Shown one piece after another: positions 1 through 62,230 of a DNA stretch of 64,000 bases. A program made the translations under genes and the position numbers. The notes under the pieces were generated by a model. The model had not been told where the DNA came from. It ran no database searches and saw nothing but the letters and a program-made list of their open reading frames with translations. The stretch comes from Alphaproteobacteria bacterium. GTDB lineage: Bacteria; Pseudomonadota; Alphaproteobacteria; JABAAW01. The stretch lies in the NCBI GenBank assembly GCA_965216605.1, contig CBDCGG010000002.1, positions 519,871 to 583,870 on the forward strand. The letters are read 5' to 3'. Numbering within the stretch: position 1 is the stretch's first letter; each line of letters opens with the position of its first letter.

Positions 1-2
1 TC

Positions 3-827
3 TTTGCTTGCGCGCAAGATCGCATTTTGGAAAAATCCTTTTTCGCCAAATGCTCTGTTCCCAGCGTGGCGTGGCAAGCTGTCTCCAACCTCGTTGAGCT
101 GACACGCGCGGTAGAAAAAATCTCGCTGCCCGTCCTGTTGAAACGCGCACGCGGCGGCTACGACGGCAAAGGACAAATCGAGATCGTCGAACAACGGCAA
201 CTCGCAGAGGCTTGGCAGGAAATAGCGTCGGGGAAAAACGAAGTGCGCGCCATCGTCGAGCAAAAAGCAGACCTAGCATCCGAATTTTCGCTGATCGCAG
301 CGCGCAACATCCGTGGCGAGTGCGTCCTTTTTCCCGCAACCGAGAATCGGCACGAAGACGGCATCCTGCACGAGAGCCGCGTTCCCGCAACGCTGGATGC
401 GGCAAGGGATGCAACAACCCTGGCACGCGCGCAAGATTGGACGCGCATCCTAGCGGAGCGATTGGGCGTTGTGGGATTGCTTACGGTCGAGTTTTTCCTG
501 ACGAGCAATGGCGAAGTTTTGGCAAACGAGATGGCACCGCGACCACATAATTCGGGACACTGGACGCTGGACGCAGCCCCCGTAAGCCAGTTCGAGCAGC
601 TACTACGCGCCATTTTGGACTGGCCCTTGGCAAGCACAGAGCCTTTCTTGCCCGCGCGCATGGTGAATCTGCTGGGCGATTCGTGGCGCGACTACCACCG
701 CTTTCTTGCCGATCCTGACGCTGCGCTGCATCTCTATGCCAAACGCGAGACGCGCAAGGGGCGAAAGATGGGGCATGTGACCTTTCGCTCGCTTGCGCAC
801 AAAAACTCAAACGCGGGAGAGACCTAA
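3..827 (+). CDS. purK: N5-carboxyaminoimidazole ribonucleotide synthase PurK, C-terminal part (gene starts upstream of window)
   Basis: The reading frame is open from the window edge. It has the ATP-grasp motif 'LLKRARGGYDGKGQ' and the 'EMAPRPHNSGHWT' motif typical of PurK/PurT. Confidence 0.8.
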   Translation, partial: FACAQDRILEKSFFAKCSVPSVAWQAVSNLVELTRAVEKISLPVLLKRARGGYDGKGQIEIVEQRQLAEAWQEIASGKNEVRAIVEQKADLASEFSLIAARNIRGECVLFPATENRHEDGILHESRVPATLDAARDATTLARAQDWTRILAERLGVVGLLTVEFFLTSNGEVLANEMAPRPHNSGHWTLDAAPVSQFEQLLRAILDWPLASTEPFLPARMVNLLGDSWRDYHRFLADPDAALHLYAKRETRKGRKMGHVTFRSLAHKNSNAGET

Positions 828-850
828 GCGAGGCACAATGAGAATCGTCC

Positions 851-1681
851 ATGAGAATAGCTAAGCGCATCGCCGATAGCGGCATCGCCTCAAGACGCGA
901 GGCGGAGGCGATGATTTTAAGCGGGCGCGTTACCGTCGATGGCAAGCCGCTCGCCTCGCCTGCGTACAATGTTGAGGAGGGGGCTATGATCACGCTGGAT
1001 GGAGATCCTCTGCCGTGTTCCAAGCCGCTCCAACTCTACCTATTCTACAAGCCGCGCGAGGTTTTGACGGCACGCATCGACGATCGAGGGCGAAGCATCC
1101 ATCCGACCTACTCGGACGCTTATCCGCAAACTCACTCCTACACCCACACGCGCACCTGCTTACCCGATTTGCTGCCTCCTGCGCTCGCGCGTTTAAAGCC
1201 TGTAGGAAGGCTCGACTTTTTGTCCGAGGGGCTGCTGCTGCTCACGACATCGGGCAGGCTTGCGCGACATTTTGAGCTGCCGCAGAACGCATGGCAACGA
1301 CGCTATCGCCTACGCTTGCACGGAATTCAAGATGAACAGACGAGTGAGAAGATGGGCGAGCAGTCACTTTTGCGATTCGAAAACCTCAAACGCGGCATCG
1401 AGATCGAGGGCGTGCATTACCGCGCTGTCTCGGTCGTCGTGCAAAAATCTCAACAGAAACGCGCCACTGAACGAGCGAACTTTTGGGTAGAGGCGACCTT
1501 GAGCGAGGGCAAAAACCGCGAGCTCAGAAAAATCATGCGGGAGCTCGGCTACAATGTTTCGCGCCTGATCAGAACGCACTACGGACCCTTCGCCCTGGAG
1601 GGATTGGCGCAAGGCGCGCACAAGCGTGTTGAGGAAAAAGAGTTGCGCACGCTGTTGGGGGAAAAGTGGCAGACTTTTTAG
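851..1681 (+). CDS. rRNA pseudouridine synthase (RsuA/RluB family; S4 domain plus catalytic domain)
   Basis: It has an N-terminal S4-like segment ('ASRREAEAMILSGRVTVDG') and the catalytic motif 'VGRLDFLSEGLLLLTT'. Confidence 0.8.
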   Translation: MRIAKRIADSGIASRREAEAMILSGRVTVDGKPLASPAYNVEEGAMITLDGDPLPCSKPLQLYLFYKPREVLTARIDDRGRSIHPTYSDAYPQTHSYTHTRTCLPDLLPPALARLKPVGRLDFLSEGLLLLTTSGRLARHFELPQNAWQRRYRLRLHGIQDEQTSEKMGEQSLLRFENLKRGIEIEGVHYRAVSVVVQKSQQKRATERANFWVEATLSEGKNRELRKIMRELGYNVSRLIRTHYGPFALEGLAQGAHKRVEEKELRTLLGEKWQTF

Positions 1682-1692
1682 AGCTGCTACAC

Positions 1693-2418
1693 ATGCGACA
1701 CAAACAACTAGCCTCCGCATCTCGAACGATCCACAAAGCCCCGCGCTTGTTGGGCGGCGAGCGACGCGGCTTCGCGTTGCAAACAAGCGCAAAAGAAGGA
1801 AAAGGAGAGGGCAAAGGGGAAGGGAAAGCAATGCGTCCGACGGCGGTGCGGGCGCGCAAGGCATTGTTTGACGCGCTGACGCATCGCGCTTCTTTGCGTG
1901 TGAATTTCACGGCAGAAGAAAATTCTTGCGGAGAAAATTCTTTTTGGCTGTTGGATGCTTTTGCCGGGAGCGGTGCTTTGGGCTTGGAGGCACTCAGCCG
2001 ATGGCAAAGATCTAACAAAGGGGATAACGAAGGATGCGGTATTTTTTTCGAGGGCGACGCTGCCACGGCGCGAGTGTTGCGCGACAATATCGAGCGTAGC
2101 GGTTTGGGGGGGCGTGTTGTTTGTCGTGATGCAAGTGCGCCTGGCGAAGCAAGAGAACAGGGAGCGATTCGACTGGCTTTCTTTGATCCTCCTTACGCGA
2201 TGTCTGATGAGGAGGTTGCGCGCGCTCCTGCGGCATTTGCGAAAGGGGGATGGTTTGGCGAGGGTGCGCTCGTTGTTTTTCAGCGTGCGGCGGGGGGGGA
2301 GTCTTCGTTGTCGTTAGGGGAGGAGTTTGTTTTGCAGGGCGATTTGCTGTCTTCTTCTGCGCGCTTTTTCTTCTTTCGCTACAGGGGGCGAGGGGGCAGA
2401 GTAAGTGACAGGCTTTGA
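1693..2418 (+). CDS. rsmD: 16S rRNA (guanine966-N2)-methyltransferase RsmD, with a low-complexity KEGKGEGKGEGK insertion
   Basis: Motifs 'RPTxxRxRxALF', 'LDAFAGSGALGLEALSRW' and 'FFDPPY' are present. The start is uncertain; the ORF track begins at 1666, and 1693 (in-frame Met) is chosen here. Confidence 0.7.
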   Translation: MRHKQLASASRTIHKAPRLLGGERRGFALQTSAKEGKGEGKGEGKAMRPTAVRARKALFDALTHRASLRVNFTAEENSCGENSFWLLDAFAGSGALGLEALSRWQRSNKGDNEGCGIFFEGDAATARVLRDNIERSGLGGRVVCRDASAPGEAREQGAIRLAFFDPPYAMSDEEVARAPAAFAKGGWFGEGALVVFQRAAGGESSLSLGEEFVLQGDLLSSSARFFFFRYRGRGGRVSDRL

Positions 2419-2457
2419 GTGACAAAAAGGCAGATTGCAAGGTTGCGAGTCAGCTTG

Positions 2458-2600
2458 CGCACGACAAGTCGTGCGCTTTTGAATAAGAGGCTACGCGCGT
2501 AACCCTTCGGGTTGCGCGCGTAGAAAGCGCTTACGCGCTCGCTGACGCGGGGTCTTTTGTGGGGGGGCAAAGCCCCCCCACACCCCCACGCGCGCAAGCG
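2458..2600. repeat. Copy A of a ~140-bp dispersed intergenic repeat family (reverse orientation relative to copies B and C)
   Basis: The reverse complement aligns with 11835-11985 and 50640-50775. The shared core is AAAGACCCCGCGTCAGCG..GCGCGTAAGCGCGC..TAGCCTCTTATTCAAAAGCGCACGACTTGTCGT, plus a G7-loop-C7 hairpin. It lies between the convergent rsmD and purN. Confidence 0.8.
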
Positions 2601-2681
2601 CGCGTTCGTTTGCTCGTCAAAGCGCGAGTCCAGTTTTTTGGGTCTACACCGCTACCTGTTAAAATTAAGAAACAAAACCCG

Positions 2682-3266
2682 TCACGCGTTCGCACGCCCG
2701 CGCACATACTCCGCAAGCACACGCGGATAAAGCCGATGCTCCAACATAAGCACACGCGCCGCCAAACTCTCAGGCGAATCGCTTTCGTTAATATCCAACC
2801 GCTCCTGTCCCAAAACCTCCCCCCCGTCCAACTCCTCCGTCACAACATGGACGCTACACCCATGCTGGCGATGCCCCCCCTCAAGCGCACGGCGATGCGT
2901 CGCAAGCCCGCGCAACCTCGGCAATAACGAAGGATGAATGTTGAGAACACGATCACGCCAACGCGCCACAAACCATTTTGAGAGTAATCGCATAAACCCC
3001 GCCAAGCAGACGATCTCCACATCACGCTCCCCCAACATACGATCGATCACTTGCTCAGCTTGCTCTTTTCCCAGCGCGTCGTAGTCGACAACCTCGCTAG
3101 GAATACCTGCCTTTTTGGCGATCAGACAACCCTCTGCCGCGCGATCGGCAAGAACCAACACGATAGAGCAAGGAAACTTCGGCTTTTGAGCCGCCCGTAT
3201 CAAAGCCTCAAGGTTCGATCCTCGCCCCGAAATCAACACGGCGACACGACACTTCAAGGCAGACAA
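2682..3266 (-). CDS. purN: Phosphoribosylglycinamide formyltransferase PurN
   Basis: Motifs 'VAVLISGRGSNLEAL' and 'VCLAGFMRLL...VLNIHPSLLP' match PurN. It sits directly downstream of purM. Confidence 0.85.
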   Translation of the reverse strand: MSALKCRVAVLISGRGSNLEALIRAAQKPKFPCSIVLVLADRAAEGCLIAKKAGIPSEVVDYDALGKEQAEQVIDRMLGERDVEIVCLAGFMRLLSKWFVARWRDRVLNIHPSLLPRLRGLATHRRALEGGHRQHGCSVHVVTEELDGGEVLGQERLDINESDSPESLAARVLMLEHRLYPRVLAEYVRGRANA

Positions 3267-3277
3267 GTCGTTAGTCG

Positions 3278-4369
3278 TTATCCGTCCTGAAACTTGACGA
3301 CAGGCTTGGCGTTGGAATCGGAGTCGTCTGCCACCTCGACAACCCCAACCTCGACGACCTTCTCTCCTGCCGCCGTCGCCGCCGTAAGAAAATCCTCGCG
3401 CTTGGCAGGAGGAACAGCGACGATAAGCCCTGCTCCGCAGTTGAAGACGCGACGCATCTCACCCTCAGCAATGTTGCCCGCTTGTTGCAAGCGCACAAAA
3501 ACTTCAGGACGCACCACCGCCCGCATATCGACCAGCGCACGCTGTCCGTCTTGCAAGATACGCGGCAGATTGTCCTCGATCCCCCCACCCGTGATGTGCG
3601 CGATCCCCGAAACCAACCCTTTTTCAATCCACGGCGCACAAACCTTGTTATAGATACGCGTCGGCTCTAACAAAGCTCGGAGAAAATCTTTGTCTTTTTT
3701 AAGCGCGGGGCTTGATTCCAACACGGCACGCACGAGCGAAAAGCCGTTGGCATGCACACCACTGGAGGGTACGACAAAAAGCTTGTCGCCTACCTCTACG
3801 CGCGTCTTGCAAAAGGGAGCGTCGCGCTCGAACGCTCCGAGCACAAATCCTGCGAGGTCGAAATCTCCTTTACGATAGAAGCTCGGCATCTGCGCGGTCT
3901 CGCCGCCGACGAGCGCACAACCAGCCTGCGCGCATCCCGCGGCGATGGATTCCATCACTTGTTTTTGCAAGGTTGGCGAAATAGAGGCGTAGGCGAAATA
4001 ATCAAGAAACGCCAATGGCTGCGCGCCGTCTTTGAGCAGGTCGTTTGTGCACATGGCGACCAAGTCGATGCCTAGGTCGATAGTGATGTCTTCGCAAGAT
4101 TGCGCCTCGATAGCGAGACGCAACTTCGTGCCGACCCCGTCGCACGCCATCACGATGATAGGGTCGCGAAACCCCGCTGCTTTCAGGTCGAAAGGTGCGC
4201 CAAAGCCTCCAAGGGCGGAGACAGCGTGCGCAGGAAACGACGCGCCCTCGCTTGTCTGACGAGCCAGCGGTGCGAGCGTCTCCTCGACAAAGCGATTGCC
4301 TTCCTCGACATCGACCCCCCCATCGTCGCGGTAGTTTAAGCTTGAAGAGGGCTCGTATCTGTCTTCCAT
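3278..4369 (-). CDS. purM: Phosphoribosylformylglycinamidine cyclo-ligase (AIR synthetase) PurM
   Basis: It contains 'SLNYRDDGGVDVEEGN' (compare E. coli 'LSYKDAGVDIDAGN') and 'GGETAQMP'. The start is set at the internal Met corresponding to the conserved N-terminus; the ORF extends to 4435. Confidence 0.85.
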   Translation of the reverse strand: MEDRYEPSSSLNYRDDGGVDVEEGNRFVEETLAPLARQTSEGASFPAHAVSALGGFGAPFDLKAAGFRDPIIVMACDGVGTKLRLAIEAQSCEDITIDLGIDLVAMCTNDLLKDGAQPLAFLDYFAYASISPTLQKQVMESIAAGCAQAGCALVGGETAQMPSFYRKGDFDLAGFVLGAFERDAPFCKTRVEVGDKLFVVPSSGVHANGFSLVRAVLESSPALKKDKDFLRALLEPTRIYNKVCAPWIEKGLVSGIAHITGGGIEDNLPRILQDGQRALVDMRAVVRPEVFVRLQQAGNIAEGEMRRVFNCGAGLIVAVPPAKREDFLTAATAAGEKVVEVGVVEVADDSDSNAKPVVKFQDG

Positions 4370-4611
4370 ATCGTCTCTCTTGATTGACTCCCTTGATTGA
4401 CTCCCTTGCATGCGATTCGTTATGACATGCAACAAGCTCGTCCTATTCTAAAACCCAAAACTTCGTTGCGAAAGCCCAGCTTTTTCTGAAAAACAGAAAA
4501 AACGAGTCTTTACGATTCATTTTTGCATTTTAGCTGCTTGAAGTTATCCCCATCTTTTTTAGAAGCCTATTGTATTATAGTAGGCTCGCCCTCTCAATGG
4601 GAGATTTCTTC

Positions 4612-5883
4612 ATGCAGACAAATTTTCTTCGTTCTCTTTTTTTCTTCCTCTCGCTGTCGCTGCTGCCCGCAAACGCGCAAGCACAGCAGAACAGGCTGGA
4701 AGAAGCGTTGCTGGTCTCCCTGCCCGTCAGCGTCGAGGCTAGCGTCGAGCAGGAAGGCAAAAAGAAAGCCGCAAGCCTCGCGCTACGCACAACCTTCGCA
4801 GAAGTGCTGCACCGATTCGTCGTCGACGAGAATCGCGCGCGTGCGCTAGCACAAAGCTTGTCGGAAAAACACATCCGCGCGCTCAGCGAAACGCTGATCG
4901 TGGAAACTACAAGCTTCGACGGCAAGCTTTTCACAGGGCAAGCCAGCGTCCGTTTCATCTTGGAGAAACTTTTCGCGCGCCTGCATAAAGAAGGGCTGCA
5001 AGTCTCCTTTACCATAGCTCCTTCGTTCGTGCTGATTCCCGTCTTCGTGCGAGCAGAGAAAACAGAATTGTGGCCGCCGCAAAATCCATGGCTGAGCGCG
5101 TGGAAGACAGAAAGCACCGACAAGAGCTGGCTCGTTCCCATCACGCCGATCGAGGCGAACGCCGCCGAAAGGCTTGCTGTGCTTGATGCCGTCAAGGACT
5201 TGCAATCGATGCAGGCAGCCCTGCTCGCCAAGCAGTATCACGCGCAAGGAATCGCCAAGCTTGTGGCGACGCTCCACATCGATGCGGAAGATCCCTCTGC
5301 GCTCATGCTGAGCGTAAGCGGTCAGCTGAACCAAGCGGGGTTTCCTTCTGAGCTGCCTCCTTTTTCTGTCGTATCGAACAGCGCGAGCAAAAGCCAAAAC
5401 AAACAGCAGGGCGAGCAAGAGGAGAAACCGCAGGGCGAACAGCAGGGCGAGCAAGAGGAAAAACCGCAGGGCGAGCAAGAGGGCGAACAGCAGGGCGAGC
5501 AAGAGGACAAACAGGAGGACGAGAGCGTGCGCCTCCTTGCCACCCTGCTCTCGCAAGCGCGCACCGAGACGCTGTACCGTCTGAATCGTCTTTGGAAAGA
5601 GCAAACGGCGCACGAGGCAAAACGTCGCAGGTTGAGCCTCATCGCCGAGCTGCGCTCGCGCGAGGAGTGGACGGCTATCGAACGAGTGCTTTCTGCAACG
5701 CCGGAGCTCGTCGAATACGGCTTGCGTAGCCTCTCTGCGCGACAGGCGCATGTTGTCGCCTATCACTACGGCTCGCCAAGCCTATTGCGAGCAGCCTTGA
5801 CACGACGAGGGCTCATCGTCGGCAAGACGAAGGATGGCGATCTTATTGTAAACCTTGCCGCAAAGCTTTCTGTTGTGCCATGA
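4612..5883 (+). CDS. Secreted hypothetical protein with signal peptide and Q/E-rich tandem repeats (QGEQEEKPQGEQQGEQEE...)
   Basis: The signal peptide 'LSLSLLPANAQAQQ' is present and a GGGAGA RBS lies 8 nt upstream. A nucleotide-level tandem repeat spans 5395-5525. No family was recognised. Confidence 0.5.
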   Translation: MQTNFLRSLFFFLSLSLLPANAQAQQNRLEEALLVSLPVSVEASVEQEGKKKAASLALRTTFAEVLHRFVVDENRARALAQSLSEKHIRALSETLIVETTSFDGKLFTGQASVRFILEKLFARLHKEGLQVSFTIAPSFVLIPVFVRAEKTELWPPQNPWLSAWKTESTDKSWLVPITPIEANAAERLAVLDAVKDLQSMQAALLAKQYHAQGIAKLVATLHIDAEDPSALMLSVSGQLNQAGFPSELPPFSVVSNSASKSQNKQQGEQEEKPQGEQQGEQEEKPQGEQEGEQQGEQEDKQEDESVRLLATLLSQARTETLYRLNRLWKEQTAHEAKRRRLSLIAELRSREEWTAIERVLSATPELVEYGLRSLSARQAHVVAYHYGSPSLLRAALTRRGLIVGKTKDGDLIVNLAAKLSVVP

Positions 5884-7043
5884 CCGCCAAAGCTGAGCGA
5901 AGACGCTCTCCCGCAACCGAGTCTCACACACCGCGCTGGACGCGCGTCTTGTGGTGGGGCGCGTGGTGCGCAAGCCTGAGCTTGCTCTTCTTATTGCTAG
6001 GCAGCATTCTTGCGCCCTTCGTCTTCGCCTTCGTGCTGGCGTGGATGCTGAACCCCCTCTGTACGCGGATCGCAAAACATTTGGCAAGGATTGCAGTGCC
6101 TCTTCCCTTCTGTCGTGCGCTGGCAGCTTTGCTGTTAACGCTCGTGTTGCTAGGCTTGCTTGTCTTGTTGCTTTTAGCAACGCTGCCAGCCCTTCTGCGC
6201 GAGACGCTGCAGCTGGTCGCAGCCCTGCCGAGCATGACGACAACCCTGCAGGACAAAGCGCAACGACTAGCAGATACAATTCCTTGGGTAAACCAATGGC
6301 AGCAACTGCTGCTGCCCGCATGGGAGAGCGCGCGCGACCTCAATTCCAACGCTTTGCCGAATCTGTCGCCGAATCTGTCACAATGGCACGACCTTTCACA
6401 ACAAGCTTTGCGCTTGATCTCGCAAGCACTACAGACGCTGGGGCAACAGACCTCGTCGATCGTGGCGGTGTTGTCGTGGTTTGCGCTCGTGCCGTTTGCA
6501 ACCTTCTACATGCTGAAGGATTGGACGCAAGCGATGCAGGCTTGTCGCAAACGCATTCCTCGCGCCGAGCAACACTTGCTCGCGCTTTTTCGACGCATCG
6601 ACGAGACGCTTTCCGCACTGATTCGCGGGCAAGCTGCGGTGCTAGGCACGATGGCGCTCTTCTATGCAACCTTGCTCTCGATTGTGGGACTGCCTTACGG
6701 ATTTGCCATCGGCATCGCGGCGGGATTGCTGATGGTGTTGCCCTATGTCGGCACGCTGTTGGGGGCAAGCACCGCGCTTATCGTTGCCTATGCGCACGGC
6801 GGCTTCGATTTGCTTTTCTTGCTGACTGCGCTCGTCTTTGTTGTCGGACAATTACTCGAAAGCTATTTTCTCACGCCGCGCTGGGTAGGAAAGCGCGTTG
6901 GCTTGCATCCTCTGTGGGTTGTCTTCTTTGTGCTTGCGGGCGGCGAGATTGCCGGCTTTACGGGAATCCTGCTCGCTTTGCCGATGGGGGCTACGCTACG
7001 CGCTATCCTCGCGCACATCGACGCACAGGCTCGCAGCTCTTGA
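5880..7043 (+). CDS. AI-2E family transporter (PerM/YdiK-like)
   Basis: It is a polytopic membrane protein with the conserved C-terminal half 'LPYVGTLLGAS...GQLLESYFLTPRWVGKRVGLHPLWVVF..GG..AGFTG' characteristic of the AI-2E/UPF0118 family. Confidence 0.75.
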   Translation: MTAKAERRRSPATESHTPRWTRVLWWGAWCASLSLLFLLLGSILAPFVFAFVLAWMLNPLCTRIAKHLARIAVPLPFCRALAALLLTLVLLGLLVLLLLATLPALLRETLQLVAALPSMTTTLQDKAQRLADTIPWVNQWQQLLLPAWESARDLNSNALPNLSPNLSQWHDLSQQALRLISQALQTLGQQTSSIVAVLSWFALVPFATFYMLKDWTQAMQACRKRIPRAEQHLLALFRRIDETLSALIRGQAAVLGTMALFYATLLSIVGLPYGFAIGIAAGLLMVLPYVGTLLGASTALIVAYAHGGFDLLFLLTALVFVVGQLLESYFLTPRWVGKRVGLHPLWVVFFVLAGGEIAGFTGILLALPMGATLRAILAHIDAQARSS

Positions 7044-7071
7044 GTTGGATAACGCTTGATCTGCGCGACGC

Positions 7072-7848
7072 TTGATTGACGCAGATTTTGAAGGATCGGC
7101 GATGGCACAAGGTGCGCAACACAATCTTCCTCTGCCTGATACGCGCGGCGAGGGATTTGAGGAGAAACATTTCTTGCGCTTGCAAGCCAACAGCGAGGCG
7201 TTGGATGCGTTGCTAGCTTGGCAAGCTCTCAGTCAAACTCTCAGTCAACCTTGCAAACAAACTTCGAGCGTGCCGAGTGCTCCTCGTATCGAGGCTTTGT
7301 GTGGGGCTGCGAAGTGCGGCAAGTCGCACTTGGGAGAAATATGGTGTGCGCGCAATGGGGGACGTGCGGTCACGCCGTCTTTGTTGTTGCAGGGGTTAGG
7401 GGAGGTATCTGATAGGGCTTTGTGGCTTGATTTTTCTGCGGGCGAGGATCCTGCCGAGGTGGGCATGACGCAGGATTTGGAGCGTGCGTTGTACGCGCTT
7501 TACAACGAGGTGATGCATAGTGCTGGGGGTTCTTTGTTGATCACGGCGCGGAGCGAGCCTAGTCGATGGAGATTTTTGTTAGCTGATTTACGCTCGCGCA
7601 TGCGTGCGGTTGTTGTGCGGCGTATTGGGGATCCGAGCGATGAGGACAGCGCGCGATTGTTGGAGAGGATTTTCCGCACGCGGCAATTGGAGGTTGATCC
7701 GCGTGTTTATGCTTATGTGCATCGTCGAATTGAGCGGAGTTTTCGGGCGCATCATGCGATTGCGGAGGAGTTGGATACTTTGAGTTTGCTGCATAAGCGG
7801 AAGATCACGCTGCCTTTTGTGGCGCGTTATTTCGAGCGGGCGCACTAG
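7072..7848 (+). CDS. hdaA: DnaA-related regulatory inactivator HdaA-like protein
   Basis: A degenerate P-loop 'GAAKCGKSHL' and a DnaA domain III/IV-like C-terminus are present. It is about 250 aa, typical of alphaproteobacterial HdaA. Confidence 0.55.
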   Translation: MIDADFEGSAMAQGAQHNLPLPDTRGEGFEEKHFLRLQANSEALDALLAWQALSQTLSQPCKQTSSVPSAPRIEALCGAAKCGKSHLGEIWCARNGGRAVTPSLLLQGLGEVSDRALWLDFSAGEDPAEVGMTQDLERALYALYNEVMHSAGGSLLITARSEPSRWRFLLADLRSRMRAVVVRRIGDPSDEDSARLLERIFRTRQLEVDPRVYAYVHRRIERSFRAHHAIAEELDTLSLLHKRKITLPFVARYFERAH

Positions 7849-7978
7849 CGCAAGTGTTTTTTGCGGGGGATTACTCCCTCGCGCTCCCCGCGTGCTACGC
7901 GCGCGATGTTTTGCATCCGTAAAAACTACGCGCACTCGTAAAGGTTATCCACGCCCGTAAAAACTACGCGCGCCCGTT

Positions 7979-11686: not shown

Positions 11687-11834
11687 GGGAGCAGTAGGGG
11701 TTAGGGGGGGTCAATAGTAAGTAGCCGAAGGCAGTATAGCCTCTGATGGACGATGGTGGGCTACGATGGGCTATTCACCTAGATACTTATTGAAATGCTT
11801 TTTGGGTTGTCCACAAGTTTTTTTTTGTCTAACG

Positions 11835-11985
11835 ACGCGCACGTAGTGCGCGGGGGGGTGTGGGGGGATAAATTCCCCCCACGAAGACCCCGCGTCAGCG
11901 GAGCGCGCGTAAGCGCGCTTTAACTACGCGTGAGCGAAGCGAAACGCGCAGCCTCTTATTCAAAAGCGCACGACTTGTCGTCAAT
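11835..11985. repeat. Copy B of the ~140-bp dispersed intergenic repeat family
   Basis: It lies in the 700-bp divergent intergenic region upstream of nrdJ. It shares the core AAGACCCCGCGTCAGCG / GCGCGTAAGCGCGC / GCCTCTTATTCAAAAGCGCACGACTTGTCGTC with copies A and C, and contains the GGGGGGATAAATTCCCCCC hairpin. Confidence 0.8.
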
Positions 11986-12029
11986 ACGAAAAGCGCGTTA
12001 TTTTCCAAAAGCTCTGCTACACTCCCCCC

Positions 12030-21226: not shown

Positions 21227-22203
21227 TCCTGTGCGTTGTGCGTTTGTGTGGCGAGAAGGTCGCCTTGCCGATTATTGTCTATATTCGCGGCGAATTGTTT
21301 TTTGGCTTTTCTGAGCCATATGACGAACTCGGCTTTGGAGACGACACGCACTTCGACGGGCATATAGGCGTGTCCCGCTCCGCAGAGCTCCGTGCAGAAT
21401 CCGTAATAGACGCCTTTCTTTTCGGCGGTGAGCCAAGTTTCGTTCACGCGCCCTGGCACGCCATCGATCTTGACGGCGAAGCTCGGCACAGACCACGAGT
21501 GCAACACATCGGCGGCGGTGACGAGCACGCGCACCTTAACGCCGACGGGCAGGACGAGCGCGTTGTCGGTCTGCAGCAGGCGTTTGGATTTGTCTTTGAG
21601 ATCGTCTCCTTGGAGCAGGTTGGAGTCGAAGGTGAGTCCGTCGTGGTCGGGATATTCGTAAGACCAATACCACTGATGTCCCGTAGCTTTGACGGTGAGG
21701 GAGGCTTCTGACACATCTTCGATGGCGCGCATGAGGTTGAAGGAAGGCACGAAGAGCACAACGAGAATAGCGACAGGGATGAGCGTCCAAATAACTTCCA
21801 GACGAACGTTGTGCGTCCTTTTCGAGGGCTTGGGGTTTCGTTTCTCGGAAAAGCGCCAACAGATGAACCCTCCCAGCACAAAGACAAGGAGGCAGATGGC
21901 AGTGAGGACGGGCATCAGAAGGTTGTCGTGAAAGTCGAAGGCTTGACGAGCGAGCGACGAGGCAGGCTCTTGAAACCCAGTCTGCCAATTGTGCGAGGCG
22001 CCCACCGCCTCACCCTCTTGAGCAAGCGCTTGAGAAAACCCTTGAGAAAACGATTGGAAGAGCAGAAAAACGACAGCAATCACAAACGCTTTGGTAAACG
22101 TTTTTGCAAAAACTTGCGCAAGAACCCGCGCCTTTACGATACGGACAAGATAAACAAAACTCATGCCCCTATCATAGATACAACGACACGGTCTTTTCAA
22201 CAA
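21223..22203 (-). CDS. ctaC: Cytochrome c oxidase subunit II
   Basis: It has two TM helices plus a cupredoxin CuA centre '[12 protein letters not shown]' and 'HSWSVPSF'. Confidence 0.9.
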
Positions 22204-22236
22204 AAATTTCTGACCTGCTCGGCTTTAAGTTTTTTG

Positions 22237-23907
22237 CTAGGGTTTGCATAACATGAGTCCATAGAAGGGTTTTAGTTTCTCTGCTTTTTCAGGACATTGG
22301 GAGAGGGTAGGCAAGCGCACGCCACTCAAACCGCTGTCGTAATAATTGAAAAAGATCGGTATCGCCCAGTCTACTAGGCTCGTATCAGGCACGACAAACC
22401 ACCCCCCATGCTTCTCCGCCTGTCGCACATCGTATGAGCGCAAGAATGCATACTTGCCATCCTTTCTCATCCTTTGGACGGAGATATAAAGCAGGCAGGC
22501 AACAACAATAAACACGACGATTCTTTGAACGCGCGAAAAAGGAGGTTGCTTCTCGTCGGGCGCGAGCAGGAAAACAAGAAAGAGCACAGGTAGCCACCAG
22601 TTCTGCGGCGCATGGCGAAAAGAAAAACCCACATTGAACGAAAGTATCGAGACGGCGACCCCTGCCAAGACGAGCAACCCTCCTCGGTGTCGCACAAAAA
22701 ACACCAGTGTCAAACACAGAAGCAAGGCGCCGCTAAACAAAGAAGAAAAACCATGCAGAAACGATTGCAAGTTCAGAGAAGAAAACGGCGGTAAAGGAAC
22801 GGGAGTCCAATTGGAAGTTTCTGCCGTTTTTGAAAACAGCGCAATCCACCATTTCTCGTACTGCGACTTTCCTGAAAAGACGGGGCTTGATTCCTCCAAA
22901 AAAACTATCTCTTGTTTCTCTTCGCCGAACACGATAGCGGGATAAAAAGGATGGACAGGGTTTCCATGCAGGTAAGCGTTTGTCGAGTAAGGGAAGAAGC
23001 CGAATAAGACGACCCCCAAAATCGTAGCCGCACTCCCCAGCCCCGCCAGTTGCAAAAGCGTCTTTCGGCTTGCGCCTCGCCGTGCGCCGTAGGCAAGAGC
23101 CGTCATCCCCAAAACACCCCCAAAAACAAGCCCTGTGAACTTGATGTTGACAAGCAGCACGAGAAGACACGCGACATAAACAGCTGTCCTTAGTCGTATC
23201 GTTCGGCTTTGTGCTTTGCCCTCCGAGACAAAACAAAGCATGAGCAAGAAAGCGCTCAGCAGCGTCGAGACAAGCAAGCCGTCGTTGAGGTGGGAGAAAA
23301 AACACATGGCAACAATGGGGTTTGCCGCAAGCAGAGCAGCCAAAACATTGCGCCAAGAACGAGACAAGCGCGGCAGGGTTTCGAAGAAACGTCTTGCGCA
23401 CAGAAACGCTGCCAGAGCGGATAGAACCGAAAAGGCAAAGCTCGCCTCGAATGTTTGCGTCCATACAATCAGCGAGGCAGAAAGCAGCCAGTGCGCTGCG
23501 GGGTAAACATGAGTGACCCAACTGCTGGGTTGCCAGTAAGGATTGACATCCTCCAACAAATCAAGAATTGCTTGAGCATGGTAGCCGCGAGAATCCCATT
23601 CTCTGTCCAAGGTGAAACTCAAAGCCCATGCCGCGAGCGCAAAGACTGCCAAAAGCAGCAACAAGGTTGCAGCCAATCTCTGCCATTTTTCTTCTCGATG
23701 CAGTGCGACGACCGCTCCTCCCCACAGCAACAGCCCTGTCGGAAAGACCCAACGACCCCTCTCTATATCGATGCCTATATCGGCAAGCAGAGCAAATGCC
23801 GCCGTCATGTACAGAACGGGCAGAAACAACACCGCTGCTGTCAGCAACAGCTCTTCCACGAAAAAACTCCGTATTTTTCTGACCTGCTCGGCTTTCAGTT
23901 TTTTCAT
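22237..23907 (-). CDS. Paralog 1 of a 5-member tandem family of ~560-aa polytopic membrane proteins (putative GT-C-type glycosyl/arabinosyltransferase; function inferred from context only)
   Basis: It has about 13-14 predicted TM helices and a C-terminal soluble domain ending 'GGWFVVPD...NYYDSGLSGVRLPTLSQCPEKAEK'. Its start codon overlaps the stop of paralog 2 (TCAT). Family motifs are 'SFFVEELLL..VLFLP.LYMTAAFALL.DIGID.ERGRWVFPTGLLLWG', 'HWLLSASL.VWT' and 'NIKFTGLVFGG.LG.TALAYGARRGASRKT'. Confidence 0.75.
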   Translation of the reverse strand: MKKLKAEQVRKIRSFFVEELLLTAAVLFLPVLYMTAAFALLADIGIDIERGRWVFPTGLLLWGGAVVALHREEKWQRLAATLLLLLAVFALAAWALSFTLDREWDSRGYHAQAILDLLEDVNPYWQPSSWVTHVYPAAHWLLSASLIVWTQTFEASFAFSVLSALAAFLCARRFFETLPRLSRSWRNVLAALLAANPIVAMCFFSHLNDGLLVSTLLSAFLLMLCFVSEGKAQSRTIRLRTAVYVACLLVLLVNIKFTGLVFGGVLGMTALAYGARRGASRKTLLQLAGLGSAATILGVVLFGFFPYSTNAYLHGNPVHPFYPAIVFGEEKQEIVFLEESSPVFSGKSQYEKWWIALFSKTAETSNWTPVPLPPFSSLNLQSFLHGFSSLFSGALLLCLTLVFFVRHRGGLLVLAGVAVSILSFNVGFSFRHAPQNWWLPVLFLVFLLAPDEKQPPFSRVQRIVVFIVVACLLYISVQRMRKDGKYAFLRSYDVRQAEKHGGWFVVPDTSLVDWAIPIFFNYYDSGLSGVRLPTLSQCPEKAEKLKPFYGLMLCKP

Positions 23908-25586
23908 TGAGGTTTGCACAATGTCAGTCCACTGTAGAGTTCGCGCTTCGGAGCATTGTACGGACATTGGGACATCGTAGGCAAGCGCACGCCGCTCAAA
24001 CCGCTATCGTAGTAATTGAAAAAGATCGGTATATGCCAATCTACCAGCATATTTGTGTCGGGAACGACAAACCACCCTCCCTCTTGTTCCGCTTGTTGCA
24101 CAACCTGTGCAAGCCATAGTGCCTCCCTGTGACGGAACCTCAGCCTTTGGACGGAGAGATAAAGCAGGCAGGCAACAACAACGAACACCACGATTCTTTG
24201 GGCTCTTTGTGCGCGCAAAAAAGAAGATTGCTTCTCGTCGGGCGCGAGCAGAAAGACAAGCAAGAGCACAGGCAACCACCAGTTCTGCGGCGTGAGGCGA
24301 AACGCGAAGCTCACACGCGTCGAGATAACGGATACCATAACCCCTGCCAAGACGAACCACGCTCCTCGGTGTCGCACAAAAAACACCAGCGTCAGACACA
24401 GAAGTAGCGAGCCGCTAAACAAAGTGCCGAAGCCGCCATAAAAAGCCTCGTATTGACGCAAAGAAAACGGCGGCAAAGGAGCAGGAGTCCAATAATCTTT
24501 CCCTCTTTCCGAGAACAGCGAAATCCACCATTTCTCGTACGAAGACTTGGCGTAGAATTCTTTGTCAAAAAGCCTGCCGACGATGTCCTTTGTTTTATCT
24601 TTCTCGGCAAAGGAGATCGCAGGGTAGAAGGGGTTTTTATGCAGCGCCATGTTCGTCGCGTAAGGGAAGAAGCCAAATAGGGCGACCCCCAAGATCGCCG
24701 CACCGCTGCCAAGCCCCGCAAGATGTACAAGCGTCTTTCTACTTGCTCCGCGTCGCGCGCCGTAAGCCAGTGCCGTCAGCCCCAGTATGCCGCCGTAGAC
24801 GAGCCCCGTGAACTTGATGTTGACGAGGAAGATTAATAAAGACGCAATACAAAAGGCGGCTCGAAAGCGTATCGTTCGACTTTGTGCTTTACCCTCAGAG
24901 ACAAAGCACAACATGAGCATGGATACACTCAATAACGTCGAGACAAGCAAGCCATCGTTATAGTGGACGAAGAAACACCATGTTGCGACGGGGTTGGCAG
25001 CGAGCAGGAATGCCAAAACATTGCGCCAAACACCAGACAAGTGCGATAGGGTTGGCGTTGCCAAAAAACGCCTTGCGCACAGAAACGCCGCCACGACAGC
25101 AACGCCTGTCAAGGCAAAGCTTGCCTCGAAACTTTGCGTCCATACAATCAGCGAGGCAGAAAGTAGCCAATGCGCTGTGGGATAAGTGTAGGTGATCCAG
25201 CTTCTAGGCTCCCAGTAGGGATTGACTCCCTCCAACAAGCCAAGAATTGCAAGAGCATGGTAGAAGCGTGAGTCTTGTCCCCTATCCAAATAAAGACTCG
25301 TCGCCCACGCCGTGAGCGCGAATACCGCCAAGAACAACAGCAGCGTTGCCACCAACTTCTGCCACTTTTCTTCTCGATGCAGTGCCACGATCGCTATGCC
25401 CCACAGCAACAGCCCTGTCGGAAAGACCCAACGACCCCTCTCCATATCGATGCCTATATCGGCAAGCAGAGCAAATGCCGCCGTCATGTACAAGATCGGC
25501 AGAAACAACACCGCTGCTGTCAGCAACAGCTCTTCCACGAAAAAACTCCGTATTCTTCTGACCTGCTCGACCTTCAGTTTTTTCAT
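23904..25586 (-). CDS. Paralog 2 of the tandem polytopic membrane-protein family
   Basis: It has the same architecture. Its N-terminal ~60 aa are nearly identical to paralog 1 ('MKKLK.EQVRRIRSFFVEELLLTAAVLFLP'). Its stop overlaps the paralog 1 start, and its start overlaps the paralog 3 stop. Confidence 0.75.
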   Translation of the reverse strand: MKKLKVEQVRRIRSFFVEELLLTAAVLFLPILYMTAAFALLADIGIDMERGRWVFPTGLLLWGIAIVALHREEKWQKLVATLLLFLAVFALTAWATSLYLDRGQDSRFYHALAILGLLEGVNPYWEPRSWITYTYPTAHWLLSASLIVWTQSFEASFALTGVAVVAAFLCARRFLATPTLSHLSGVWRNVLAFLLAANPVATWCFFVHYNDGLLVSTLLSVSMLMLCFVSEGKAQSRTIRFRAAFCIASLLIFLVNIKFTGLVYGGILGLTALAYGARRGASRKTLVHLAGLGSGAAILGVALFGFFPYATNMALHKNPFYPAISFAEKDKTKDIVGRLFDKEFYAKSSYEKWWISLFSERGKDYWTPAPLPPFSLRQYEAFYGGFGTLFSGSLLLCLTLVFFVRHRGAWFVLAGVMVSVISTRVSFAFRLTPQNWWLPVLLLVFLLAPDEKQSSFLRAQRAQRIVVFVVVACLLYLSVQRLRFRHREALWLAQVVQQAEQEGGWFVVPDTNMLVDWHIPIFFNYYDSGLSGVRLPTMSQCPYNAPKRELYSGLTLCKPQ

Positions 25587-27292
25587 TGAGGTTTGCACAA
25601 TGCCAGCCCATCGAGGGGTCTCATTTTCTCTGCTTTGTCTGGGCATTGAAGCATCGTGGGCAAGCGCACGCCGCTCAAACCGCTGTTGTAGTAACGGAAA
25701 AAGGCTTCTGTGTGGTGTTTCATCTGCAGATCGGGCACGACAAACCACCCTCCTTGCCGCTCCGCCTGTCGCACAACTTGCGACAAGGCGACTGCCAGAT
25801 TGCCATGATACATCAGCCTTGCGACGGAGATATAAAGCATGCAGGCAACAACGACAAACACGATAGCTCTTTGCGCACGCGACAAAGAGCGCGACAAAGG
25901 AGATGACTTCTCGTCAGGCGCGAGCAGAAAGACGAGAAAGAGCATCGGCAGCCACCAGTTCTGTGGCGCGTGGCGAGAAGAAAGACCCACCCCGAACGAA
26001 AGAATCGAGACGCCAACCCCTGCCAAAACAAGCAACCCTCCTCGATGACGCACAAAAAACACCAGCGTCAGACACAGAAGTAGCGAGCCGCTAAACAAAG
26101 AGCCGAACCCGTCCAAAAAAGATATAGGGCTCAGCGAAGAAAACGGCGGCAAAGGAGCAGGAACTCTCCAATCTCCTTGCGTTTGTGAAAACAGCCCAAT
26201 CCACCATTCCTCGTATTGCAACCTTTCTAAAAAAACGGGGTTTGCTTCCTCCAAAAAAGCTATCTCTTGTTTCCCTTCGCCGAACACGATAGCAGGATAA
26301 AAAGGATGGACAGGGTTTCCATGCAGGTAAGCGTTCGTCGAGTAAGGGAAGAAGCCGAACAGAGCGACCCCCAAGAGAGCCGCACCACTGCCCAGTCCTG
26401 CAAGGCGGACAAGCGTCTTTCGGCTTGCGCCGCGCCTGACCCCGTAAGCCAGCGCCGTCAGTCCCAAAGCACCCCCGAAGACGAGCCCCGTGAACTTGAT
26501 ATTGATGAGAAATACAAGAAGACACACGATACAAAAGGCTGTCCGTCGCAAGCGTCGTTTGTTTTCCCTTTGAGAGCCTTCTTCGCAGACAAAGCAGAGC
26601 ATCAGCATAAAAACGCTCAAAAGCACGGATACCAAAAAGCCGTCGTTGTAGTTCATAAAAAAACAAGAGAACGCGATGGGGTTGCCAGCAAGTAACGCGG
26701 CGAGAAGATTGCGCTTCGAACGAGATGAAGCACGAGACAAGTGTGGCAGCGTTGCCAAGAAACGCCTTGCGCACAGAAACGCCGCCACGACAGCAATGAC
26801 GGTGAAGACAACGCTAGTCGTAAGGAGTTGTGTCCACACAACAAGCGAGGCAGAAAGCAGCCAGTGCGCTGTGGGATAAGTGTAGGTGATCCAGCTTCTA
26901 GGCTCCCAGTAGGGATTTCTTCCCTCCAACAAGCCAAGGATTGCACGAGCATGGTAGTGGCGAGAATCCCATTCAATATCCGCGAGGAAACTCGCCGCCC
27001 ACACCGCGAGCGCGAATATTGCCAAAACCAGCAATAGGGTTGCGAGCCGTCTCTGCCATTTTTCCTCTCGATGCAGTGCCGCGACCGCTATACCCCACAG
27101 CAGTAGCCCTGTCGGAAAAACCCAACGACCCCTCTCCATATCGATGCCGATGTCCGCAAGCAGAGCAAACGCCGCCGTCATGTACACAATGGGCAGAAAC
27201 AACACCGCCGCTGTCAGCAACAGCTCTTCCACGAAAAAACTCCGTATTCTTCTGACCTGCTCGGCTTTCAGTTTTTTTACTAGGGTTTGCAC
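25583..27292 (-). CDS. Paralog 3 of the tandem polytopic membrane-protein family
   Basis: It has the same architecture. The canonical ATG of paralogs 1 and 2 is replaced by GTA (Val), so a GTG 4 codons upstream is used as the start. Confidence 0.7.
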   Translation of the reverse strand: MQTLVKKLKAEQVRRIRSFFVEELLLTAAVLFLPIVYMTAAFALLADIGIDMERGRWVFPTGLLLWGIAVAALHREEKWQRRLATLLLVLAIFALAVWAASFLADIEWDSRHYHARAILGLLEGRNPYWEPRSWITYTYPTAHWLLSASLVVWTQLLTTSVVFTVIAVVAAFLCARRFLATLPHLSRASSRSKRNLLAALLAGNPIAFSCFFMNYNDGFLVSVLLSVFMLMLCFVCEEGSQRENKRRLRRTAFCIVCLLVFLINIKFTGLVFGGALGLTALAYGVRRGASRKTLVRLAGLGSGAALLGVALFGFFPYSTNAYLHGNPVHPFYPAIVFGEGKQEIAFLEEANPVFLERLQYEEWWIGLFSQTQGDWRVPAPLPPFSSLSPISFLDGFGSLFSGSLLLCLTLVFFVRHRGGLLVLAGVGVSILSFGVGLSSRHAPQNWWLPMLFLVFLLAPDEKSSPLSRSLSRAQRAIVFVVVACMLYISVARLMYHGNLAVALSQVVRQAERQGGWFVVPDLQMKHHTEAFFRYYNSGLSGVRLPTMLQCPDKAEKMRPLDGLALCKPQ

Positions 27293-33036: not shown

Positions 33037-33053
33037 AACTTCCTCGCCATCTT

Positions 33054-33155
33054 GGGGATAAATTCCCCTTGGGGATAGATTCCCCTTGGGGATAAATTCC
33101 CCTTGGGGATAAATTCCCCTTGGGGATAGATTCCCCTTGGGGATAAGTTCTCTTT
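33054..33155. repeat. Six tandem copies of a 17-bp unit TTGGGGATA(A/G)ATTCCCC in the dprE1 / UbiA-like divergent intergenic region
   Basis: GGGGATA recurs at 33054, 33071, 33088, 33105, 33122 and 33139 with an exact 17-bp period. Each unit contains the palindrome CCCCTTGGGG and the hairpin GGGGATAAATTCCCC. Confidence 0.85.
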
Positions 33156-42458: not shown

Positions 42459-42842
42459 ATGACAAAAATTTTGTTTTCTTTTCTGCTTTGTTTTTTTAGC
42501 CTTGTGCTGCTGTCGACGGATGCCTCTGCGCATCATGTCTATGGCATCGAGGTCTCGCCTACCTTAGAGCTTGTTCATGGCTTGGCAGAACCTTTCCTCT
42601 TCGCCTTGAGCGGAGCATGCCTTGCCGCTTTCCTATCGCGGCGCGCACCCCTCAAACTGCTTCTCGCGTTGCTCGTCTTCAGCTTTGTCTTCGGCTTTGT
42701 TGGACTCGCCTTGGCGATCGCCTCTGTGATCGAGGAAGGGGTAGGCTTGTTCCTGCTGTGGGACGCGCTGGCAGGCGCGGGGTTTTTCGCGCTCGTGGGA
42801 CGCAGACGAGTGGGCGTGAAGCGTAACGCCAAGATTTTTTAA
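42459..42842 (+). CDS. Hypothetical small membrane protein with signal peptide
   Basis: 'MTKILFSFLLCFFSLVLLSTDASAHH' is followed by 2-3 TM helices. A GGGAGA RBS is present. It is flanked on both sides by tandem repeat arrays. Confidence 0.4.
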   Translation: MTKILFSFLLCFFSLVLLSTDASAHHVYGIEVSPTLELVHGLAEPFLFALSGACLAAFLSRRAPLKLLLALLVFSFVFGFVGLALAIASVIEEGVGLFLLWDALAGAGFFALVGRRRVGVKRNAKIF

Positions 42843-42905
42843 TCAAGATTTTTTGACCAAAATTTTTTGACCAAGATTTTTTGACCAAGCTTTTTTGACA
42901 AGGAG
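42843..42905. repeat. Four tandem copies of a 14-bp unit (A)AGATTTTTTGACC directly upstream of ppa
   Basis: The sequence is tcaagattttttgacc aaaattttttgacc aagattttttgacc aagcttttttgaca aggag. Each unit carries a TTGAC (-35-like) hexamer core. The array ends at the ppa RBS. Confidence 0.7.
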
Positions 42906-42915
42906 TTTCTGACGC

Positions 42916-49189: not shown

Positions 49190-49196
49190 AGGAGGC

Positions 49197-50528: not shown

Positions 50529-50639
50529 TTTTTACGGGCGCAAAACATCGTGCTCACGCGAAAGATACGGGCTTTGTTCAATTGGGGAATGCACGCAAGA
50601 CGAGCGAGCCTTAAAATTATTTTTGGGCGAAGTGAGTTT

Positions 50640-50775: not shown

Positions 50776-50905
50776 GCAAGCTGACTCGTAACGCGGTAGA
50801 GCGTCTTTAATTTTGCCTAGAAGATAGAGAGGAAAAGAATCGCATGTAGCGCGTCTCTTGCCATGCCGCGTTAGATAGAGGGTGTGGAGTGAAAACTGCC
50901 CTAGC

Positions 50906-62182: not shown

Positions 62183-62230
62183 GCTGTTTGCGCCTAGAGG
62201 GGCAGGATCAGGGTTGGCGGAGGGGTGGGA

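Follow-up and report, generated by a model that had tools for sequence, protein, structure and literature searches.

A probable new REP/BIME-like family of mosaic palindromic repeats in a clade of uncultured Alphaproteobacteria

Repeat copies in the window

Five copies of a dispersed repeat (A to E) are found between genes of the window, the 64-kb stretch of alphaproteobacterial DNA that was analysed. The flanking gene pairs, assigned with Pfam, are rsmD-like(+)/purN(-), hda(+)/nrdJ(-), nrdJ(-)/NDUFA12-like(+), tolB(+)/DUF1640(-) and DUF1640(-)/mnmE(-). An earlier note on this DNA had proposed a dispersed family of intergenic repeats with conserved hairpins, represented by three copies of about 140 bp. 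The family is real and the three copies are where that note placed them, with the same boxes in the same order and in gene contexts that agree with Pfam (rsmD-like/purN and tolB/DUF1640 convergent, nrdJ/NDUFA12-like divergent). The number and the size were both set too low, as there are five copies and copy C alone occupies approximately 330 bp, not 135, from the tolB stop at 50532 to ~50860.

The core of the repeat, the 17-mer AAGACCCCGCGTCAGCG, occurs exactly at 2540-2556(-), 11884-11900(+) and 50679-50695(+). With up to three mismatches allowed there are four matches in the window against 0.39 expected, a value reached by none of 100 shuffles, and for the 20-mer AGCCTCTTATTCAAAAGCGC there are three matches where 0.00 are expected. 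Comparison by blastn of the window with non-syntenic loci of the sister genome OZ244186.1, described below, marks the intervals 2423-2676, 7856-7939, 11831-11981, 50562-50860 and 51416-51583, each with 43 to 68 overlapping matches.

Copy A is a single arm on the minus strand (2423-2676) with up to 68 such matches. Its head (2607-2676) adjoins the purN stop codon (2682) and is followed on the minus strand by hairpin hp1 (2589-2606), the G-run hairpin hp2 (2560-2587), the core (2540-2556), hp3, hp4, a B box (2473-2492), hp5 (2457-2476) and a T box (2441-2458). Copy E (7856-7960, minus strand) is partial and lies between hda(+) and the 3' end of nrdJ(-), with its head beside the nrdJ stop (7979). 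The head is doubled (GCGCGTAGTTTTTACGG occurs twice), hp1 and hp2b are present, and the core is replaced.

Copy B (11826-12000, plus strand) covers the interval of the original observation, 11835-11985, and occupies the divergent spacer between the start of nrdJ (11686) and that of the NDUFA12-like gene (12030). It is made up of hp1 (GCGCAC-GTA-GTGCGC), hp2a with GGGGGGATAAATTCCCCCC at 11862-11880, the core at 11884-11900, hp3 (GCGCGC-GTAA-GCGCGC), hp4, a B box at 11950-11969 and a truncated hp5. This is the sole copy in the window that breaks the rule of a head at the 3' end of a gene.

Copies C and D flank a DUF1640/CCDC90-like gene of 131 aa (50906-51301, minus strand) and their heads face outward. 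Copy C (50532-50860, plus strand) is a full arm that begins right after the tolB stop codon; the two head elements H1 and H2 are located at 50532-50548 and 50627-50646, the core at 50679-50695, the B box at 50725-50744, hp5 with a nested 13-bp module, Y, at 50747-50765, the T box at 50776-50793 and a t2 tail at 50803-50842. The sequence GAGGGGGGATAAATTCCCCTCGC, reported earlier as the terminal hairpin of this copy, is indeed present but represents a sub-module nested within the normal hairpin GCGCGTTTCGCAGAAACGCGC. Copy D (51400-51590, minus strand) is a partial arm with a one-mismatch core, AAGATCCCGCGTCAGCG, at 51460-51476. Its long head (H1 at 51524-51540) is placed beside the mnmE stop (~51610), hp1 is at 51505-51523 and hp2b at 51479-51498, and a nested X sub-module (~51423-51455) replaces hp3 to hp5.

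Away from the five copies, a tandem array of CTTG + GGGATAAATTCCC with a period of 17 is found at 33052-33139 (plus strand). The repeated element is the same 13-bp Y that is present in hp2a and nested in copy C. Seven blastn matches overlap this array, and a similar tandem Y array occurs at one locus (L071) of the sister genome.

Extent of the family

OZ244186.1, a metagenome-assembled genome labelled Alphaproteobacteria bacterium with a single 1.9-Mb chromosome, contributed at least 40 blocks of 8 kb to a scan of one genome per species with the core. The collinearity with the window (one block, L014, corresponds to window positions 1-7869 and another, L012, to 60761-64000) and ~90% identity in syntenic genes identify the window genome as a sister of OZ244186.1. 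The 40 loci, 319 kb in total, hold at least 65 cores, 88 B boxes and 68 T boxes, all of these being lower bounds. The earlier note had suggested a genome-wide count, and the sampled part of the sister genome does contain many more copies.

The family is also present in the MAG bin96p (JABACB01) and on an ENA contig, L109, which encodes a TolB 95% identical to that of the window. The 17-21 kb around tolB of more distant relatives (L110-L113; TolB identity 82%, 71% and 66%) contain no copy, and a relative with 85% TolB identity (L125) has only a simpler, diverged version at another place. The next TolB homologues, from Thalassospira and Rhodospirillales, are only 46% identical, which indicates a deep uncultured alphaproteobacterial clade. 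Only a small group of uncultured Alphaproteobacteria carries the family.

Database comparisons bear out the expectation of the earlier note that this is not an Rfam entry. The window gives two tRNAs only at the gathering threshold, copy B gives noise at E-values up to 10 (15-17 bits against cut-offs of 34-84), and nothing is matched at the motif in eight core-sharing loci of other phyla. There is no blastn match among 72,556 plasmids and 50,697 phage records. A scan of JGI metagenomes with the B box returned just two chance matches, both within coding sequence, and a scan of viral contigs with the core gave nine single matches. In the full-text papers searched, substrings of the core match CRISPR I-E repeat variants only. 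The core hairpin CCCCGCGTCAGCGGGG is itself such a type I-E variant, but a CRISPR assignment was discarded because unique spacers are lacking and the flanking sequence is different. The core is also shared with repeat families of Leptospiraceae, Desulfobacteraceae, Bacteroides, Geminicoccaceae and Palauibacter, which may reflect either convergence on a mini-hairpin or common descent.

Architecture of the repeat

The organisation can be written as the grammar [H1/H2](X)-M-B-T-(t1/t2)-[B-T-t]n. Each arm opens with a head, continues with the invariant core and closes with between one and five body units. The head comprises a T-rich start, two hairpins and the G-run hairpin. The short head reads ..GTAGTTTTTACGGRYGCAAAACAT, the long head adds a large hairpin, GTCTGTTGCGC...GCGCAACAGAC, and the alternative head H2 reads TTTTTGATTAGGTAACATACGCAAGACGAGCGAGCC..GAGTTTTGCGCAT. 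Past the head the order is hp1, the G-run hairpin hp2 in one of several versions, the core, hp3, a linker (TTCTAC or TTTATCTAC) and hp4, so that two further hairpins come after the core, AAAGACCCCGCGTCAGCGG. A body unit is formed by the B box GCCTCTTATTCAAAAGCG, hp5, the T box GCAAGCTGACTCGTAAC and a tail, t1 or t2.

Most arrays (51 of 63) are single arms, in which head and tail are not inverted copies of each other. The remaining 12 contain both orientations, and in every one the arms are joined tail-to-tail with the heads outward (p = 5e-4).

Other modules can harbour two small nested cassettes, X and Y, placed in either orientation. X is composed of CATGGAC, a hairpin with a CAAG loop and TATGG, and Y is the 13-bp sequence GGGATAAATTCCC. 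Where Y interrupts a T box it is bordered by a 4-bp direct repeat, GAGTCAG-CTTG-Y-CTTG-CGCG, compared with the uninterrupted GAGTCAGCTTGCGCG. Every combination of the hp2, hp3 and hp5 variants occurs, from which we conclude that the modules recombine.

Position relative to genes

Genes were called with a simple home-made codon-bias caller, which reproduces the Pfam-supported genes of the window and is heuristic in the sister genome. Matches to the core and B box are intergenic in 152 of 153 cases. Convergent spacers account for 22 of the 49 classifiable cores and for 31 of 185 spacers (odds ratio 4.0, p = 8e-5). At 48 of the 65 cores the gene that flanks the head is oriented towards it (p = 1.5e-4), although the orientation statistics depend on the home-made caller and the copies are not independent. 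The heads of copies A, C and E are 0-20 nt from the stop codons of purN, tolB and nrdJ, respectively, and that of copy D is ~20-60 nt from the mnmE stop. Core orientation follows no leading- or lagging-strand pattern, with plus and minus cores intermixed along the 1.9-Mb chromosome. The only promoter-like site in or beside the copies is that of the DUF1640 gene itself.

Hairpins, covariation and strand asymmetry

The linkers are conserved and the stems are hypervariable, yet approximately 96-98% Watson-Crick paired. There are 27 distinct variants of hp1, 28 of hp3, 76 of hp4 and 24 of hp5, and at these four positions ~96% of pairs are Watson-Crick, the mismatches being 14 G:T, 10 A:C and 17 others. 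Alignment of 29 copies, the covariance check that the earlier note had called for, confirms that the stems vary with compensation. In this alignment 98.4% of cells are paired, 12 pairs are altered on both sides, none of 500 shuffles reaches the observed covariation score and slid controls collapse; since the copies are related by descent, counts over them overstate independence. Given that G:T mismatches are about as frequent as A:C, the compensation is not evidence of selection on an RNA. Template switching at quasi-palindromes renders the two arms identical in one step (PMC7202029, PMC8604942).

One of the two strands is suited to folding, its hairpins being capped by GCGN(N)AGC. The forward-strand loops are GTA (57), GTAA (50), GAA (40), GCA (37) and GTCA (37), and their complements are seen 0 to 4 times. 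In 12.8 kb of element sequence, GCGNAGC and GCGNNAGC together number 332 on the forward strand and 13 on the reverse; genes carry ~1.4 per kb. The invariant core contains GCG-TC-AGC within CCCCGC/GCGGGG. GCGN(N)AGC is the consensus of mini-hairpin DNA, far more stable as DNA than as RNA, and such motifs are known at single-stranded DNA priming sites and N4 promoters (PMC13037366). When folded as RNA the forward strand is the more stable in 32 of 38 copies, and terminator-like sites, a hairpin plus a T-tract, are located on the reverse strand.

The tolB-mnmE site and turnover between genomes

The distance from the tolB stop to the mnmE stop is 36 nt in L125 and 113 nt in L110, compared with 1.08 kb in the window and 1.65 kb in L109. 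The block formed by arm C, DUF1640 and arm D is missing from the first two genomes and present in the last two. The site being empty in two relatives, the composite of two arms and DUF1640 represents an insertion or deletion polymorphism. In a further relative (L126) the contig breaks off within a palindromic repeat that follows tolB. The earlier note had remarked that copy C sits where pal would be expected. However, none of the relatives in the clade has pal after tolB, not even those free of the element, so the element did not displace it and replacement of pal is rejected.

Where the site is occupied it has been rebuilt. At the tolB end the window and L109, with flanks 91% identical, have the T box, tail and downstream flank in common at 88% identity and differ in heads, hp2, hp4 and hp5. 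At the mnmE end the 190-bp partial arm of the window, counted as one body unit, compares with ~800 bp and five body units in L109. A similar picture emerges at the rsmD/purN site, where the window and OZ244186.1 have different head types and a rare hp5 variant, ACGACTTGTCGT, in common. Orthologous sites in close relatives are thus occupied but rebuilt, and arrays expand, contract and swap modules between genomes in which the flanking genes are ~91% identical.

DUF1640 genes form the largest paralog family in the sampled part of the sister genome, with seven members. In the window and at three other loci (L109, L102 and L005) a DUF1640 paralog is bracketed on both sides by inward-facing family modules, and at a further locus (L044) an arm is found upstream of one. 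The gene is missing at the tolB-mnmE site of both L110 and L125. The protein weakly matches phrog_17872, a phage family without an assigned function, and has no match in NCBIfam.

In the window and ~17% of the sister genome, ~384 kb in all, no RAYT, IS200-like or other transposase gene was found. A regular-expression search for RAYT-like open reading frames in the window and 40 sister-genome loci found none, and Pfam searches of ten multi-copy families returned no transposase, only ABC transporter, Sel1, RTX, DNA methylase, solute-binding protein and similar families. The target-site duplications that the earlier note had suggested looking for are absent from the head flanks. No direct repeat occurs outside both heads of 13 pairs, and the head flanks share no fixed target motif.

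Comparison with known repeats

The closest likeness is to REP sequences and BIMEs, for which the biology is documented in several sources (PMC3733652, PMC2817692, PMC3116915, PMC8266576). Like these, the family consists of short, GC-rich palindromic units in high copy, extragenic and mostly 3' of genes, which form mosaics, dimers and clusters with regular orientation and conserved intervening motifs or spacers. Also alike are the sharp differences in copies and arrangement between close strains and the proposed roles as 3' UTR hairpins or terminators (PMC3733652, PMC2817692, PMC8266576). There are marked differences. An arm here is 150-330 bp with five or six distinct hairpins, as opposed to a single palindrome of 20-40 bp; the stems are hypervariable and the linkers invariant; inverted pairs are exclusively tail-to-tail; and the motifs of the E. 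coli BIMEs are unrelated to those described here. In the GTAG and CGTC super-families of REPs (Di Nocera 2013) the tag is unpaired at one end of the stem-loop, and the CGTC type has stems of 8-9 bp that begin with A/T pairs and a CCA tail (PMC3733652). In the present family GTAG is found only paired, in the outer segment of the hp4 stem (CTAC...GTAG), the core hairpin has CGTC within its loop (CCCCG-CGTC-AGCGGGG) and there is no CCA tail. Nor was a gene for RAYT, the Y1 HUH transposase that is flanked by the repeats in a REPtron, found in the ~384 kb examined. In the REP/RAYT model the hairpins are recognised as single-stranded DNA (PMC3733652, PMC2817692, PMC8266576). The REPINs of Pseudomonas, in which two inverted units create a larger hairpin-capable element thought to be the replicating unit, likewise form within-genome sequence populations (PMC3116915). 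The arms described here are about ten times longer and modular, most are single, and a number of pairs have a protein-coding gene between them.

Small, non-coding, dispersed, structured and lineage-specific repeats occur elsewhere, for example MITEs, the Correia/NEMIS and dRS3 elements of Neisseria, the Rickettsia RPEs and the RIMEs of Rhizobium. Single arms differ from MITE-type elements in having neither short terminal inverted repeats nor a target-site duplication at the arm ends; only tail-to-tail pairs constitute inverted repeats, and Y alone shows a direct repeat, the 4-bp CTTG. Unlike RPEs, which occur inside genes, copies of this family do not. With respect to PATEs derived from IS200/IS605 elements, the orientation here is without a tie to the direction of replication and no TnpA or TnpB gene was found in the sampled DNA. 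Neisseria also has mosaic clusters between genes in which repeat families are nested or interleaved (PMC3733652).

A different kind of likeness is to the mini-hairpin DNAs of the phage G4 origin, ssiA and the N4 virion RNA polymerase promoters, where the loop-closing sequences GCGNAGC / GCGNNAGC are identical to those seen here (PMC13037366). The caps are present on nearly every hairpin of the element, including the core (GCGTCAGC), and all on one strand. The known cases are single functional sites on single-stranded DNA replicons, whereas this family has several caps per unit and more than 60 chromosomal copies.

Origin of the family and alternative explanations

The earlier note had offered three readings, namely REP/MITE-like elements, sRNA genes or bidirectional terminators. 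Of these a REP-like element fits best. The MITE part fails on the lack of terminal inverted repeats in single units and of target-site duplications at the head flanks; sRNA genes are poorly compatible with the missing promoters, variable module content, arrays and absence of a G:U excess; and bidirectional termination is plausible as a side effect at convergent genes, the T-tract hairpins being on the reverse strand. We consider it probable, at about 0.65, that this is a new lineage-specific, non-coding family of mosaic palindromic repeats, REP/BIME-like in organisation and behaviour. As the defining REP tags and the MITE features are lacking, the family is described as working like REP/BIME and is not filed as a member of either class.

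By analogy with HUH/RAYT-type systems, the units would spread as folded single-stranded DNA through a trans-acting enzyme. The arrays would then be remodelled through slippage, template switching and gene conversion, processes that would keep the stems perfectly paired without selection on an RNA. In transcripts of the upstream gene, where they would form the 3' end, the stable hairpins might protect that end or terminate weakly, and the T-tract hairpins of the reverse strand might stop the convergent transcript; from the sequence we infer both roles, 3' UTR protection and termination. Several observations count against the REP/BIME-like explanation. These are the lack of a transposase in ~384 kb, of a target-site duplication or fixed target motif at the heads, of the replichore pattern seen with elements that target the lagging strand, and of the unpaired GTAG/CGTC tags by which REP super-families are defined. 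In addition, conserved linkers with variable stems resemble a structured RNA.

That resemblance leads to the possibility of a multi-copy structured non-coding RNA, with the forward strand as the RNA, the linkers as functional single-stranded or tertiary-contact regions and the covarying stems as scaffold. The invariant linkers and compensated stems, forward-strand loops of GNRA, GNA or UUCG types, the greater RNA stability of that strand (32/38 copies) and the mostly sense placement downstream of genes would all be accommodated. A possible long-range helix between the G-run and CCTCTT in 29/29 aligned copies, partly through G:U pairs, would be too, but it amounts to two haplotypes only and pairs a purine run with a pyrimidine run, so could easily arise by chance. 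Such an RNA nevertheless appears quite unlikely. There is no Rfam match and no promoter-like site except that of the DUF1640 gene, modules and unit number vary freely with close genomes differing at the same site, and the excess of G:T (14) over A:C (10) expected from RNA-type wobble tolerance is not seen. Moreover the GATA, GTCA and GNA caps are closer to the mini-hairpin consensus of DNA than to the GNRA consensus of RNA (PMC13037366). Dedicated bidirectional intrinsic terminators, selected at gene ends and multiplied by recruitment or duplication of a good cassette, would explain the enrichment in convergent spacers, the heads beside stop codons, the three sites of hairpin plus T-tract per arm on the reverse strand (e.g. 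GCGCACGACAAGTCGTGCGC then TTTTGAATAA) and the TTTATCT or TTCTAC that follows hp3 on the forward strand. The T-tract hairpins are oriented to suit the convergent partner gene only. Between co-directional genes 15/20 cores place the strong T-tract hairpins antisense, as does copy D, and copy B occupies the promoter region between divergent genes. Termination calls for far less than arrays that reach 1 kb and carry five body units along with nested sub-modules, and relatives manage with 36-113 nt and no element at the same gene junction. We therefore regard selection as terminators as an unlikely origin.

The strict tail-to-tail pairing has a different significance if the repeats are non-autonomous derivatives of insertion sequences (MITE or PATE), for example of the IS200/IS605 family, with the heads as ends. 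Pairs with heads outward (12/12) resemble long terminal inverted repeats, some enclose a passenger gene, ssDNA-type hairpins lie close to the ends, lineages differ in whether the tolB-mnmE site is filled or empty, and a missing target-site duplication is what IS200/IS605 elements would leave. We judge this derivation quite unlikely since no transposase or TnpB-like gene was found in the sample, the enclosed DUF1640 is a small coiled-coil membrane protein and not an enzyme, there is no replichore bias, the head boundaries are fuzzy with several head types, and single arms predominate (51/63 arrays). There is a further, rather improbable scenario of self-propagating modules that fold as single-stranded DNA. 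Arms capped by mini-hairpins would be copied, and X and Y cassettes inserted into stems or loops, without an enzyme of the RAYT or IS200 type, either through an uncharacterised protein (the DUF1640 family is the only candidate seen) or purely by replication-coupled template switching.

Implications

The repeats coincide with contig ends and N runs in two short-read assemblies of relatives (L125 and L126). Since they fill the spacers at gene ends, they matter for assembly, binning and the annotation of 3' ends in this symbiont-like clade.

Interspersed repeats of the palindromic type are common, and the CGTC-type REPs are not known to have an enzyme. The family described here is unusually legible, with a clear grammar, strict tail-to-tail pairs, a one-strand bias of the caps, nested cassettes, and filled and empty sites. 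That combination makes it directly testable which strand folds and what enzyme or replication process does the copying. Were the self-propagating scenario to be true, the family would represent a new way to generate and spread palindromes, not another REP family.

Genes adjoining the repeat modules

Among the genes next to the family are those for DUF1640/CCDC90-like proteins (window 50906-51301; loci L044:2371-4461, L102:2170-2571 and L005:3492-3929). Of the paralog families in the sampled sister-genome loci this is the largest; it counts seven genes, four of which form a tandem run at L044. Inward-facing family modules flank a DUF1640 paralog on both sides in the window, in L109 (an ENA contig carrying the family), in L102 and in L005, and at L044 a repeat arm lies upstream of the paralogs. 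A promoter-like TTGACT-N17-TATCGT is common to all of the paralogs. Apart from DUF1640/CCDC90-like, the sole match was a weak one to the phage family phrog_17872, of unknown function.

Directly after tolB, pal is absent in all clade members compared (window 49128-50528; loci L109-L113 and L125). Across these members the next feature is a convergent mnmE, an MFS transporter or the repeat/DUF1640 block. The 113 nt tolB-mnmE spacer of L110 (L110:10585-10697), a relative without the family, includes ACGCAAGACGAGCGAGC, identical to the start of the alternative head type H2 that is frequent across the sister-genome loci; this stretch may be the remnant of an element, or H2 may have been captured from it.

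The sampled sister-genome loci also contain three N6/N4 DNA methylase paralogs (L022:4847-6034, L049:2614-4083 and L101:130-948), at least two of which (L022 and L049) adjoin repeat arrays. Every T box, a component of the body units, carries a GANTC site, either GACTC or GATTC. GANTC is the CcrM-type target in Alphaproteobacteria.

Components of the repeats in other settings

The 13-bp mini-palindrome GGGATAAATTCCC, present as hairpin 2 in copy B and nested within copy C, recurs together with CTTG in a tandem array, (CTTG+GGGATAAATTCCC)n with a period of 17, in a divergent spacer at window 33052-33139. The sister genome has a comparable array at L071.

Several other tandem repeats were observed. 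Five units of about 1.68 kb each, with mutual identity of 63-85%, occupy window 22200-30700; they code for a set of paralogs, each about 560-610 aa long, whose sole match, a weak one, is to DUF2142 (membrane protein). Six copies of the 14-nt repeat CCAAGATTTTTTGA lie at window 42815-42926, and the similar ACAAGATTTTTTACAAGATTTTTT occurs in the spacer upstream of a pyrophosphatase gene at L110:2440-2480. Within predicted genes, coding-like repeats have a 15-nt unit (GAGGAGCAYGGAGMA) at window 35132-35320 and a 12-nt unit (GGCGAGCAAGAG...) at window 5401-5543.

The exact 17-mer core, AAGAYCCCGCGTCAGCG, is also the conserved centre of multi-copy repeats that are unrelated and have completely different flanks, in MAGs of other phyla. 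Such repeats occur in a Leptospiraceae MAG (L008, L029, L033, L034, L037, L038, L070 and L096), Desulfobacteraceae (L024, L073, L077, L080 and L089), a Bacteroides MAG (L026, L056, L072 and L090), Geminicoccaceae (L009, L017, L020, L085 and L106) and Palauibacter (L011, L046, L088 and L103). The Bacteroides variants retain the small core hairpin by compensatory change, CCGC-GTCA-GCGG becoming CTGC-GTTA-GCAG. No Rfam match was obtained at the core motif in eight loci from other phyla. The recurrence could have arisen by convergence towards a mini-hairpin, GCGTCAGC, whose opposite strand carries a TCTT tract, or it could reflect something shared.

Assembly of the clade

Short-read metagenome contigs from relatives have ends or N runs at or near these repeats (L125:1150-1250, L126:1900-1955 and the two contig ends), and this coincidence suggests that the repeat family fragments assemblies of this clade.
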